Assembly: GCA_963662665.2 (NCBI GenBank) | Contig: CAXXJS010000016.1 | Span: 1 to 64,000 of the forward strand | Direction: 5' to 3' | Source of the DNA: Candidatus Latescibacterota bacterium | GTDB lineage: Bacteria > Latescibacterota > UBA2968 > GCA-2709665 | DNA: 64,000 bases | Part shown: piece after piece, positions 52,960-56,164 of the stretch | Layout of the letters: each line of letters opens with the position of its first letter | How positions within the stretch are numbered: the stretch's first letter is position 1 | Position numbers and translations under genes: made by a program | Notes under the pieces: generated by a model | Seen by the model: the letters and a program-made list of their open reading frames with translations, nothing else | What the model was told of the DNA's origin: nothing | Database searches by the model: none

Positions 52960-52988
52960 AAAAAAGCCGACCGCTGATACAGTCGGCT
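52960..52988 (-). terminator. intrinsic terminator downstream of the gamma-carboxylase-like gene
   Basis: Minus strand AGCCGACTGTATCAGCGGTCGGCTTTTTT. Confidence 0.65.
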
Positions 52989-53108
52989 CCTGCAAGTCCC
53001 CTCGGAAGTAATCCTGACTTCGCGACCCGGCGCACCGGACTCCGGTATGCTAACGCTGCCACGGAAGGAGTTCACAGCCTGGCTTGCACGTGACGGCGCA
53101 AAGTATCG

Positions 53109-53648
53109 TCAATTGCGCAATGTAATCCATTCGTTGTGCCCGAACAGGGAATATCCGACGGCAGCGAGGTTGACAGTCTCACCAACAAGGGGTCTGTAGT
53201 CCCTGCCGTTCAATGAAACCAACGAACGAACGTATACAGGCGCGTTTTCGAAACCACCTTGCCTGAGTTTCTCCGAAAGGTGCCTTGCGTATTGATTTAT
53301 CATATGCGGTCTGGTGGACATTTTGCGCCGCTGCCTGCGGGACAGTTCGGAGGTCGGCAGGACGACCAATTGACCGGTGTCCGGATCTCTGGTATGGAAC
53401 GATATCTCACGCGCACGCTTGTCCCGGAGTTTCATCCGCCAGGAAAAATTGTGTCCTTCGTCCGTCCATGCGACGTCGCCCTCTATGGCAAAATGGCGCA
53501 GCGGCAGAATCAACTGCGCGGCCGCGAACGCAGCCAGCAACAGGGCCTTCGCAGGGCGTCTGATCCCGTATCGTGTATCGTGTTTGCTGCCGGAATCCGA
53601 ATTCGCGGCGGCGTCAACCGGCCTGGTCAATACTCCATTCCAGTTCAT
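53109..53648 (-). CDS. vitamin K-dependent gamma-carboxylase-like protein, C-terminal (post-HTTM) domain only; may be a truncated gene
   Basis: QLILPLRHF...VAWTDEGHNFSWRMKL...Q..KMSTRPHMI.QYARHL...VSLNGR...LV...VNLA matches the C-terminal part of bacterial HTTM/VKGC proteins. No HTTM-coding sequence was seen upstream. Confidence 0.72.
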   Translation of the reverse strand: MNWNGVLTRPVDAAANSDSGSKHDTRYGIRRPAKALLLAAFAAAQLILPLRHFAIEGDVAWTDEGHNFSWRMKLRDKRAREISFHTRDPDTGQLVVLPTSELSRRQRRKMSTRPHMINQYARHLSEKLRQGGFENAPVYVRSLVSLNGRDYRPLVGETVNLAAVGYSLFGHNEWITLRN

Positions 53649-53888
53649 TTTTCGAAGACGTTACCGAGGCCGGTCAGGCGCCCGTCACCACTACTCATCG
53701 AAATGGACTCGCATTCTGAAGAATTTCAGACCGTTGAAATCCGGGACGCCGTCCCTGGTACGTCCACTTCGCGGGTTGTAATCCCGATCAGTCTCAACGC
53801 AGGTCAGGACACTCGAGAGACGGACGGCGCCAGAAACGCGCAATGAAACTCGCAATCGAAAGAATCGCGCTAATGACGGATATGCCGG

Positions 53889-55430
53889 CTAAGGTTTGTT
53901 GAACGAAGCAGCGAATATCAAAAAGTCCTGGAAGTCGACGGTACCGTCACCATTGAGGTCGAATCGGGCATCGTCAGTACCGAAGGCACGTGCGAAACTT
54001 ATAAAGTCGCTGAAATCGACCGCGCCGTCCCCATTAAAATCTGACCGTTCAGGCGTTGGCGCGGGAGTACCGGTGGTTTGTTCGTCGTTATTCTCATCGC
54101 CCTCGTCGCCCTCATCGCCCTCATCATTCTCGTCGTCCTCATCGCCCTCGTCGCCCTCATCGCCCTCATCATTCTCGTCGTCCTCATCGCCCTCGTCGTT
54201 CTCGTCGCCCTCATCGCCCTCGTCATTCTCGTCGCCCTCATCGCTCTCGTCGCCCTCATCGCCCTCGTTCTCGTCGCCCACAACGCCCTCATCGTCCTCG
54301 TCACCCTCGTCGCCCTCGTCGCCTTCGTCGCCCTCGTCGTCCTCGTCGCCCTCATCACCCTCGTTACCCTCGTCGCCGTCGTTCTCGTCGCCCTCATCGC
54401 CCTCGTCGTTCTCGTCGCCCTCATCACCCTCATCGCCCTCATCGCCCTCGTCGTTCTCGTCGCCCTCATCACCCTCGTCGCCCTCGTCGCCGTCGTTCTC
54501 GTCGCCCTCATCACCCTCATCACCCTCGTCGCCCTCATCGCCCTCGTCGTTCTCATCGCCCTCGTCACCGTCGTTTTCGTCGCCCTCATCGCCCTCATCG
54601 TTCTCATCGCCCTCGTCGCCCTCATCGTTCTCGTCGCCCTCGTCGCCCTCATCGTTCTCGTCGTTCTCATCACCCTCATCGTTCTCGTCGTTCTCATCAC
54701 CCTCATCGTTCTCGTCGTTCTCATCACCCTCGTCACCCTCGTCGCCCTCATCGCCCTCGTCACCCTCATCGCCGTCGTTCTCATCGCCCTCATCGCCCTC
54801 GTCGCCCTCGTCGCCTTCGTCGTTCTCATCGCCCTCATCGCCCTCGTCGTTCTCGTCGCCTTCGTCGCCATCGTTTTCGTCGCCTTCGTCGCCCTCATCG
54901 TTCTCGTCGCCCTCGTCACCCTCGTCGTTCTCATCACCTTCGTCGCCCTCGTCGTCCTCGTCGCCCTCGTCGTTCTCATCGCCTTCATCACCCTCGTCGT
55001 TCTCATCGCCCTCATCACCCTCGTCGTTCTCATCGCCCTCGTCATTATCATCGTCGTCGTCATCATCGTCATCATCGTCGTCGTCATCGTCATCGTCATC
55101 ATCGTCGTCGTCATCGTCATCGTCGTCATCGTCGTCATCATCGTCGTCGTCATCGTCATCGTCGTCATCGTCGTCGTCATCGTCGTCATCGTCGTCATCG
55201 TCGTCATCGTCGTCGTCATCGTCATCGTCGTCATCGTCGTCGTCGTCACTGGAAGCACTGATTCCAAAGCCGGTACGTGAGTCGATGCTCCTTTCGCTTC
55301 TGAGGAAGGGCGAGGTCTGGTCATCCACCGGCGTGTCTTTTTCGCTGTGCCCGTAAATAGACGAAGGTCGACCCAAAGCCATCAGGATCACGATGCTCAC
55401 GACGGAAATAAAACGCCTCAGGTGTGTCAT
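53889..55430 (-). CDS. secreted hyper-acidic repeat protein with C-terminal paired EF-hand/dockerin-like domain
   Basis: Signal-peptide-like N-terminus, GGAG-type RBS, 67 consecutive Asp, about 320 aa of DEG/DEN repeats, PAPTP linker, then DFNGDGAVDFSDF and DLNGDGTVDFQDF. Confidence 0.85.
   Translation of the reverse strand: MTHLRRFISVVSIVILMALGRPSSIYGHSEKDTPVDDQTSPFLRSERSIDSRTGFGISASSDDDDDDDDDDDDDDDDDDDDDDDDDDDDDDDDDDDDDDDDDDDDDDDDDDDDDDDDDDDDDDDDDDDNDEGDENDEGDEGDENDEGDEGDENDEGDEDDEGDEGDENDEGDEGDENDEGDEGDENDGDEGDENDEGDEGDENDEGDEGDEGDEGDENDGDEGDEGDEGDEGDEGDENDENDEGDENDENDEGDENDENDEGDEGDENDEGDEGDENDEGDEGDENDGDEGDENDEGDEGDEGDEGDEGDENDGDEGDEGDEGDENDEGDEGDEGDEGDENDEGDEGDENDGDEGNEGDEGDEDDEGDEGDEGDEGDEDDEGVVGDENEGDEGDESDEGDENDEGDEGDENDEGDEDDENDEGDEGDEGDEDDENDEGDEGDEGDENNDEQTTGTPAPTPERSDFNGDGAVDFSDFISFARAFGTDDARFDLNGDGTVDFQDFLIFAASFNKP
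54084..55247 (-). repeat. coding tandem repeat: (GAY)67 followed by 9-nt DEG/DEN units
   Basis: 55047-55247 is 201 nt of mixed GAC/GAT codons; 54084-55046 is degenerate GAY-GAR-GGY/AAY units. Confidence 0.95.
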
Positions 55431-55468
55431 CTCCGTTTCCCTACCTGTAAGTATAAAATACAGAAAGG

Positions 55469-56164
55469 CTATTTGCGCTTTTTCTGAGACAGGTTGAAGC
55501 TCACGATGATCCGATCGGCGGCCTTCCCCTCGGCCCTGGATCGATTCGGAGCCACGCTATGGTACAGCCAACTCGGGAAGATCAGCATTCTTCCGGCCAC
55601 GGGTTTGTATCGGACTTTCGTCCAGCAGATTCGTGGTCGTCTGGTGCCGGGGATGTATCTGACGGGATTCATCAGGTTCTGGGTGCGCGGATCGATGAAC
55701 TCGATTCGACCCGAATTCGTGGGCGCCTGGACGTAGTAGACGCCGCTCCAGATGCAGCCGGGGTGGATATGTGCCCGGTTCACTCCACCCGGTGGATTGA
55801 TGATCGACCACATCGTGCCGATGCTCAGTTGATAGGACCTGTGATAACCGAGTTCGCGGCACATCAGGTCCGAAGCCGCGTCGACGCATTGAACCAACTC
55901 CGTAAATATAACGTCCTTGTGCATATTGACGTGGCTGTGCCAACTCCCCAACTCCGGAAAGTTCGACTTGGGCACCCCTGCTTCGTCGCGTTCTCGTTCT
56001 GCGTAGATCGCCTTGATCACGTCGGCGTTCAGAAGCTCGCTGTCCGGTACTTCCAGAGAAAAAATGAGCGTCGGGAAATAGGGTTGCACCTTGAGCGCGT
56101 TTTCGGACAGACGAGCCGCCGGGCCGCAGTCCTCGGCGCCACGGTTCGGAGTGTCGCGCGTCAC
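55469..56164 (-). CDS. 2OG-Fe(II) oxygenase (TIGR02466-like)
   Basis: FPT, W..IN..G..N.AHIHP...SGVYYV, F.DPR, FPSWLYHSV.PN, RIIVSFN. Confidence 0.87.
   Translation of the reverse strand: MTRDTPNRGAEDCGPAARLSENALKVQPYFPTLIFSLEVPDSELLNADVIKAIYAERERDEAGVPKSNFPELGSWHSHVNMHKDVIFTELVQCVDAASDLMCRELGYHRSYQLSIGTMWSIINPPGGVNRAHIHPGCIWSGVYYVQAPTNSGRIEFIDPRTQNLMNPVRYIPGTRRPRICWTKVRYKPVAGRMLIFPSWLYHSVAPNRSRAEGKAADRIIVSFNLSQKKRK

Follow-up and report, generated by a model that had tools for sequence, protein, structure and literature searches.

A partly decayed gene cassette for an exported Asp-rich polyanion and its candidate modifying enzymes in a Latescibacterota genome

The stretch of DNA considered here, referred to as the window, comprises 64,000 nucleotides (nt) of a Candidatus Latescibacterota bacterium (assembly GCA_963662665.2, contig CAXXJS010000016.1, positions 1 to 64,000). 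Between positions 52,960 and 56,164 it carries three genes, encoding a 2-oxoglutarate (2OG)-Fe(II) oxygenase, a secreted acidic protein and a protein resembling vitamin K-dependent gamma-carboxylases (VKGC). With moderate probability, and judged from gene content and comparison with relatives, the locus represents a mobile, modular kit for the enzymatic modification of exported Asp-rich polyanions, in a copy that has partly decayed. In the window genome (4.86 Mb, 92% complete) only the oxygenase arm could be active. A preliminary description of the sequence had proposed that both enzymes act on the acidic protein, with Glu converted to gamma-carboxyglutamate (Gla). The acidic protein has held up as the likely partner of both enzymes; a working carboxylase in this genome and the Glu-to-Gla reaction have not.

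Anatomy of the locus and linkage of the oxygenase to acidic repeat genes

The co-orientation of the three genes, the gaps of 38 nt (oxygenase to acidic gene) and 240 nt (acidic gene to VKGC-like gene) and the terminator, all noted at the outset, were confirmed by the positions of the open reading frames (ORFs) and by hairpin folding. The features, with their basis in brackets and lengths in amino acids (aa), are:

55469-56164, minus strand: 2OG-Fe(II) oxygenase of the TIGR02466/PF13759 family, 231 aa, intact (hidden Markov model (HMM) match, fold, substitution-rate ratio)
53889-55430, minus strand: secreted polyanion, 513 aa, 298 Asp plus Glu, putative substrate (composition, homologues in relatives)
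55350-55430, minus strand: signal-peptide-like residues 1-27 of the polyanion (predicted by eye from sequence and alignment)
55248-55349, minus strand: conserved spacer of about 34 aa between signal peptide and Asp run (alignment)
55047-55247, minus strand: poly-Asp run, 67 residues (alignment, codons)
54078-55046, minus strand: (Gly/Asn/Asp)-Asp-Glu triplet repeats, free of Pro and Lys (sequence)
53889-54068, minus strand: C-terminal EF-hand/dockerin-like pair (EF-hand_1 36.5 bits, Dockerin_1 30.6 bits)
53109-53648, minus strand: remnant of an HTTM plus lumenal vitamin K-dependent carboxylase gene, 179 aa (PF22777, alignment to the homologue P0002)
53604-53648, minus strand: what is left of the 5' end of the once full-length gene, as far as the deletion junction near 53604 (comparison with genomes G007 and G014)
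53121-53549, minus strand: PF22777 VKGC lumenal domain, with the last transmembrane helix lying ahead of this interval (HMM)
52960-52988, minus strand: intrinsic-terminator-like hairpin and U run (folding)

The terminator was seen on folding and was not picked up by a consensus scan; it consists of a 13-bp hairpin with a U run behind it, and a 51-nt piece containing it folds with -21.3 kcal/mol.

The acidic protein contains 192 Asp, 106 Glu, 83 Gly and 35 Asn in its 513 residues, and these four amino acids make up 386 of the 389 residues of its acidic tract, in line with the first impression of a gene composed almost entirely of them. It is the sole ORF of this kind in the genome. The signal-peptide-like stretch is followed by Gln in aligned relatives and by His in the window protein. 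The conserved spacer behind it is a possible recognition segment, and the first 61 codons of the gene show ratios of nonsynonymous to synonymous substitution rates (dN/dS) of 0.22-0.33. The Asp run is encoded by a mixture of GAC and GAT codons (42/25), the corresponding runs of relatives being 5-45 residues long. The 99 X-D-E triplets comprise 71 GDE, 23 NDE and 5 DDE; since Pro and Lys are lacking, any hydroxylation of the repeats must hit Asp, Glu or Asn. A collagen-like reading was rejected, as Gly starts only 71 of the 99 triplets, Pro is absent and the Pfam Collagen model yielded no passing stretch. Because the EF-hand/dockerin-like motif is found in 72 ORFs of the genome, the C-terminal pair is regarded as a generic surface-protein tag.

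The assignment of the oxygenase as TIGR02466-like was borne out (196.7 bits against a cut-off of 62.5), PF13759 matched as well, and the protein is a clear member of this family (PDB 2rg4, 3bvc). It has a double-stranded beta-helix fold with the metal triad His132-x-His134...His202 and Arg218, all four residues being invariant in 39 aligned rows, and dN/dS against nine relatives amounts to 0.16-0.61. It is basic (isoelectric point 9.35) and shows no visible signal peptide. The fold search returned two uncharacterised relatives first, then the protein hydroxylases PHD2/P4H, with the nucleoside enzyme PolD also among the neighbours; AspH was absent among the fold matches listed, and the AspH family gave no Pfam match at E 0.01. 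Upstream of the gene no convincing Fur- or DtxR-type box was seen, the best candidates agreeing at 13/19 and 12/18 positions with consensus motifs.

The oxygenase gene and an acidic repeat gene are linked across phyla. Within the genus, the pair is present in 5 of 15 genomes, inserted between a GNAT gene and a gene for a 634-aa protein, and the other ten show the empty site. Among 168 genomes of the phylum, 14 from two families possess a full close oxygenase (80-90% identity; a fifteenth hit, a contig-end fragment in G170, was excluded), and the acidic gene lies directly downstream in all 14 assessable genomes. A further class, to which a record titled Thermoanaerobaculia belongs, has an oxygenase of 73-75% identity in 4 of 401 genomes. 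There the order is reversed: the gene lies 26 nt behind that of a lipoprotein, whose only likeness to the acidic protein is a G-D-E/D-D-E repeat at the C-terminus; a carboxylase was not found in these four genomes. Altogether, 18/18 assessable close oxygenases, at 73-90% identity and from two phyla, have a secreted (G/N/D)-D-E repeat protein as immediate neighbour, compared with 0/90 distant oxygenase-family loci, so the tie of TIGR02466 to acidic repeat proteins is limited to one subclade. At the set thresholds, the oxygenase was found in none of 401 genomes in the order of G191, 127 in the order of G192 and 137 in the class of G025, and likewise not in 5/5 and 4/5 genomes of two further searched sets. 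Homologues of 70-79% identity labelled Deltaproteobacteria, Rhodospirillaceae and Gammaproteobacteria fall outside the gene-context counts, and viral contigs hold only distant relatives (23-40% identity).

An intact three-gene operon is found in G109, where the oxygenase, a 577-aa acidic protein and a 470-aa enzyme with HTTM and lumenal domains are separated by gaps of 27 and 15 nt. The same gene order occurs in G123, split across two contig ends within the repeat, and three further oxygenase/carboxylase protein pairs, each agreeing in the length of the longest contig, hint at more intact copies. At the 14 oxygenase loci of the phylum, the carboxylase is broken in five (G000, G007, G014, G108, G122) and gone from seven; in two genomes that lost it (G017, G010), a hairpin similar to that of the window stands directly 3' of the acidic gene. 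Synonymous divergence (dS) of the oxygenase across families is 0.14-0.21, lower than that of the flanking GNAT gene within the genus (0.66-1.06), so the cassette is mobile. Cross-phylum linkage, the exchange of scaffolds and the intact operon give strong comparative support to the acidic protein as an enzyme partner, and the co-occurrence that the preliminary description suggested checking is complete for assessable close relatives (18/18 oxygenases, 7/7 intact carboxylases).

In the sequencing runs, summed contig depth over the oxygenase (55469-56164) and the GDE repeats (54078-55046) far exceeds that of the flanks, and the contigs are divergent, a weak hint that other community members carry relatives of these sequences. 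In two RNA data sets, no more than 5-7% of the sequence words were present.

The carboxylase remnant and its intact relatives

The VKGC-like ORF matches PF22777, the lumenal domain, and nothing else (E 5e-40; 137 bits against a cut-off of 27.7), and the earlier remark that it lacks the HTTM membrane domain is thus correct. It consists of about 14 N-terminal codons joined in frame to the last 165 or so, and its alignment to P0002 (459 aa) covers residues 7-17 and 293-457 of the latter; the HTTM domain, and with it the equivalent of Lys218, was lost when about 275 codons were deleted in frame. G007 and G014 have at the same place the same gene start, then HTTM sequence that breaks off (in G007 with 74% identity to P0002 over 69 aa and 48 bits for PF05090), from which it follows that a single full-length gene has decayed along different routes. 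Both domains are present in each of the 50 longer homologues returned. A stand-alone lumenal protein family found no support, as one of the nine short hits is the window protein itself and most lie on short contigs. In a dN/dS comparison of the remnant, dS was saturated. Misassembly was rejected as a cause of the truncation, since contigs from 3/4 runs of three studies span the region (52655-54120) with 0-3 differences.

A separate HTTM gene, which the preliminary description suggested might lie elsewhere, was not found in the 92%-complete genome with PF05090, tblastn or a profile of 138 homologues. On sequence grounds, the ORF is a non-working deletion remnant, and because the HTTM partner was not found either, the window locus cannot carboxylate as originally proposed.

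Intact relatives (e.g. those of G109 and P0002) keep the HTTM plus lumenal architecture. P0002 aligns to residues 54-503 of the 758 of human GGCX (E about 1e-55); no NCBIfam model for the intact carboxylase was found. The equivalents of N159, H160, K218, W223, N290 and F299 are kept in 137/137 bacterial and archaeal sequences and D263 in 135, the conservation of N159 and H160 stemming partly from selection, as rows were chosen with motifs covering this pair (the count omits 42 loci from which no full ORF could be extracted). The position of Tyr395 is occupied by His in 135 of the 137 and by Gln in two, and that of Leu394 by Gly in 134. According to the accessible parts of two papers, N159, H160 and Y395 hold the Glu carboxylate, the bacterial relative MloH carboxylates an aspartyl residue (PMC12647623) and K218 is the base (PMC13486548). 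Since the residues are conserved except at 394/395, the redox and CO2 machinery is kept and the acid-binding pocket altered. Such a pocket fits a non-Glu substrate without proving one, and the change is family-wide.

Seven of seven intact close carboxylases (G109, L026, L027, L028, L029, L030 and L032, under the labels Latescibacterota/Gemmatimonadetes, Aminicenantes and Rhodothermales) directly follow a poly-Asp gene at a distance of 15-386 nt, the C-terminal modules of the partners being different. In four of them (L028, L029, L030, L032) the Asp/Gly tract of the partner is free of Glu, and in the three of these genomes that were searched no oxygenase was found. Judging by the tract types at the linked loci, the oxygenase goes with the GDE repeat and the carboxylase with runs of Asp. 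The Glu-free partners and the His at position 395 indicate that the proposed Glu-to-Gla reaction is probably wrong.

Among 149 non-redundant distant carboxylase loci (35-49% identity; the near-duplicates L130, L143, L145 and L146 and the seven close-clade loci were excluded), nine have within 2.5 kb a poly-Asp protein, the criterion being 15 or more Asp in a stretch of 30 residues. These neighbours are mostly exported-looking and come from Bacteroidota, Ignavibacteriaceae, Chloroflexota and others. A D4xD4 pattern occurs within 3 kb at 7/149 loci versus 0.03-0.17 expected from a background of 46 positive genomes in 850 Mb of one phylum. Of 22 additional distant loci, those of G035 and G036 encode a poly-Asp protein immediately downstream; at three, a second HTTM gene, SdpB-like, stands between the carboxylase and a small poly-Asp peptide. 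Poly-Asp-linked carboxylases occupy several separate branches of the tree. A complex prediction with the carboxylase alignment and residues 28-100 of the G109 acidic protein scored 0.01 and was used neither way.

Two arrangements at such loci deserve separate mention. ORFs of 95-123 aa (L302:2927-3298, L307:2970-3257, L306:5184-5513) that combine a conserved leader-like segment with 10-12 consecutive Asp and a tail rich in Lys adjoin two HTTM genes, one GGCX-like and one SdpB-like; they look like an undescribed precursor of the type of peptides that are made by ribosomes and modified after translation (RiPPs). At L103:5413-7109, L044:1137-4035 (both Chloroflexota) and L122:6201-9018, a carboxylase adjoins pairs that by eye resemble sigma and anti-sigma factors, the second ending in a poly-Asp tail, and regulation through a modified sensor tail is possible.

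Genomic surroundings

Metal-related genes are frequent neighbours of the cassette: DHOR-imelysin-porin, haem uptake (Hmu), FeoAB and a cation efflux (CDF) pump. They are not neighbours in G108 or L029. In three lineages, a cytochrome c fusion and a multihaem cytochrome adjoin the cassette as a pair (L203:3294-6000, L205:1088-2752, L030:9578-12552, L427:9345-12402). In the window, the flanks of the insertion site lie outside the system:

56436-57011, minus strand: GNAT acetyltransferase gene, one edge of the insertion site (domain scan, relatives)
50780-52684, minus strand: gene of the 634-aa protein, other edge of the insertion site (relatives), with no Pfam or NCBIfam match

The region of the GNAT gene, the 634-aa gene and an SLC13 transporter (window 50000-58800, L007-L021) is an insertion hot spot in the genus and holds duplications of the 634-aa gene, split GNAT genes and inserted toxin-antitoxin-like and restriction-like genes. 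Elsewhere in the window, a respiratory-type cluster (2135-9423) encodes a multihaem cytochrome c (1029 aa), the C-terminal part of a cytochrome b, a Rieske protein and a HEAT-repeat protein; a DDE transposase gene (PF13701) is followed by a ferritin gene (38817-41110); and NAD-dependent epimerase genes stand as tandem near-duplicates (45947-48519), two of them confirmed, with a third similar ORF upstream. Several of the named relatives are presumably sponge-derived.

Candidate chemistry and its alternatives

In the enzymatic modification model, the basic, cytoplasmic oxygenase would hydroxylate acidic residues of the (G/N/D)-D-E repeats before export, beta-hydroxy-Asp being the most likely product. 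In genomes with an intact gene, the membrane-bound HTTM plus lumenal enzyme would draw on menaquinol, O2 and CO2 and, on the outer side of the inner membrane, carboxylate Asp of the poly-Asp tract (+44 Da), not Glu; two menaquinone-pathway genes (PF02621) are present in the window genome. The product would be anchored by the host's own C-terminal tag, be it a dockerin-like EF-hand pair, a tail of the type IX secretion system type or a lipoprotein, and would form a dense chelator of metal ions. The two enzymes would be accessory and separable. Beta-hydroxy-Asp is a ligand of Fe(III) in siderophores, and malonates are ligands of Ca. We infer a surface-anchored metal-chelating polymer, for Fe or Ca, the affinity of which may be tuned by the enzymes.

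Known systems resemble this scheme in part. As in animal GGCX and Gla proteins, the residues of the vitamin K and CO2 sites are kept in intact relatives and the putative substrate is secreted and acidic. Unlike in animals, the bacterial relatives have no match beyond residue 503, the region responsible for propeptide binding, they carry His for Tyr395 and Gly for Leu394, their partners are poly-Asp proteins, often Glu-free and encoded next door, and the window copy is devoid of HTTM. MloH of malonomycin biosynthesis was reportedly described by Law et al. in 2018. This bacterial relative of the vitamin K-dependent carboxylases acts, as far as the accessible text goes, on an aspartyl residue (PMC12647623, PMC12186529). 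It alpha-carboxylates an intermediate of a polyketide synthase-nonribosomal peptide synthetase pathway and is described as HTTM fused to a DUF5819-like region, whereas the target here would be an exported protein of ribosomal origin and PF22777 forms the second domain, a comparison made with MloH by description. For the oxygenase, the available text of PMC12186529 names SmaO, a bacterial 2OG enzyme that beta-hydroxylates Asp in Gly-flanked sites, and also CinX and YhhC among the peptide Asp beta-hydroxylases of RiPP clusters. Like the SmaO/CinX type, the oxygenase belongs to the 2OG-Fe(II) enzymes, and its gene adjoins that of an Asp/Gly-rich ribosomal substrate; here this substrate would be a surface protein of 250-940 aa with hundreds of sites, and the triad is His-x-His...His, the likeness being one of description rather than of sequence. 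SdpB-like HTTM proteins and split HTTM plus DUF5819 pairs are likewise encoded beside exported peptides, and an SdpB-like gene stands between a distant carboxylase and the small poly-Asp peptide in the three genomes mentioned above; they belong to a different subfamily, and none was found in the window genome. In a literature search that had most subscription papers outside its scope, no link of HTTM/VKGC or TIGR02466 genes with poly-Asp proteins was found. In the accessible parts of the papers, MloH, with its small-molecule intermediate, was the sole characterised bacterial VKGC homologue, and a protein substrate was not found.

Several points weigh against enzymatic modification. The same search returned no TIGR02466/PF13759 member with a demonstrated substrate or function. 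Because the carboxylase is broken or missing at 12 of the 14 oxygenase loci, it is dispensable, and because the dS of the oxygenase is below that of GNAT, the 14 copies are recent transfers and not independent. His395 is no mark of poly-Asp specificity, since it is common to linked and unlinked enzymes, and none of the 27 active-site columns inspected separates the two. About 140 of the 149 distant carboxylases have no poly-Asp neighbour, the expectation for the D4xD4 pattern is a single-phylum rate, and a within-locus near-versus-far test was weak (p 0.12; p 0.03-0.05). At 18/18 other poly-Asp loci, neither enzyme lies within about 5 kb, and in the window genus no metal gene adjoins the cassette. 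Independently of these counts, many unrelated secreted proteins of this phylum and of Rhodothermales (L315-L332) were seen to contain D/G, D/K, D/S or D/R tracts, no modifying enzyme being encoded close by.

Both enzymes stay within tens of bases of the repeat gene though scaffold, order and other neighbours change, the pair of the window genus was inserted without any metal gene, and the carboxylases with poly-Asp neighbours are spread over separate branches of their tree. It is therefore unlikely that the three genes merely hitch-hike together on mobile metal-uptake islands, with no enzyme-substrate relation, an account which would fit the low oxygenase dS across families, the repeated loss of the carboxylase while the acidic gene is kept, the recurrence nearby of the cytochrome pair and of DHOR-imelysin-porin, Hmu, Feo and CDF genes, and the frequency of unlinked poly-Asp proteins (18/18). 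A functional link without covalent change has a similarly low probability: the polyanion would take up metals as a sink or buffer, and the two enzymes, both users of O2, would have other substrates (a small molecule, lipid or nucleic acid) or serve the same stress response as O2/Fe sensors. The basic oxygenase could indeed bind nucleic acid and has PolD among its fold neighbours, it ends in another compartment than the mature polyanion, the latter works enzyme-free in many genomes, and viral relatives are proposed as epoxidases for lipid chemistry in the accessible part of PMC13486548; yet the tracking of GDE repeats by one enzyme and of Asp runs by the other would be left unexplained, and the bacterial enzymes keep a lumenal segment absent from viral ones. 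A split gamma-glutamyl carboxylase, in which the lumenal ORF and an HTTM protein encoded elsewhere make Gla, is very improbable in view of the fruitless HTTM searches, the ORF start identical to that of the full-length gene, the two domains in all 50 longer homologues, the other decay products in sister genomes and the Glu-free partners at 4/7 intact loci, even though the fragment, which was seen in several runs, has stayed in frame and retains most of the conserved residues, split HTTM systems are predicted elsewhere (bioRxiv 10.64898/2026.08.19.745780, accessible in part), the genome is only 92% complete and the repeats contain 106 Glu.

Enzymatic modification of the polyanion is hence the reading preferred here, and it allows a broader proposal, which is advanced tentatively: a substantial fraction of the GGCX-like enzymes of bacteria and archaea may be vitamin K-dependent aspartyl carboxylases of exported poly-Asp tracts. 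Together with a TIGR02466 subclade that would hydroxylate GDE repeats, they might convert ordinary ribosomal proteins to metal-chelating polymers studded with malonate and alpha-hydroxycarboxylate groups, i.e. a protein-scale siderophore or mineral template, of which animal Gla chemistry would be a Glu-shifted offshoot. The locus and its relatives provide concrete, clonable enzyme-substrate candidates for bacterial VKGC homologues and TIGR02466 oxygenases, with the prediction that Asp rather than Glu is modified and that +44 and +16 Da appear on simple repeats. If true, this would constitute a new prokaryotic protein modification, bear on the origin of Gla chemistry and open a route to enzymatically made metal-binding polypeptides.

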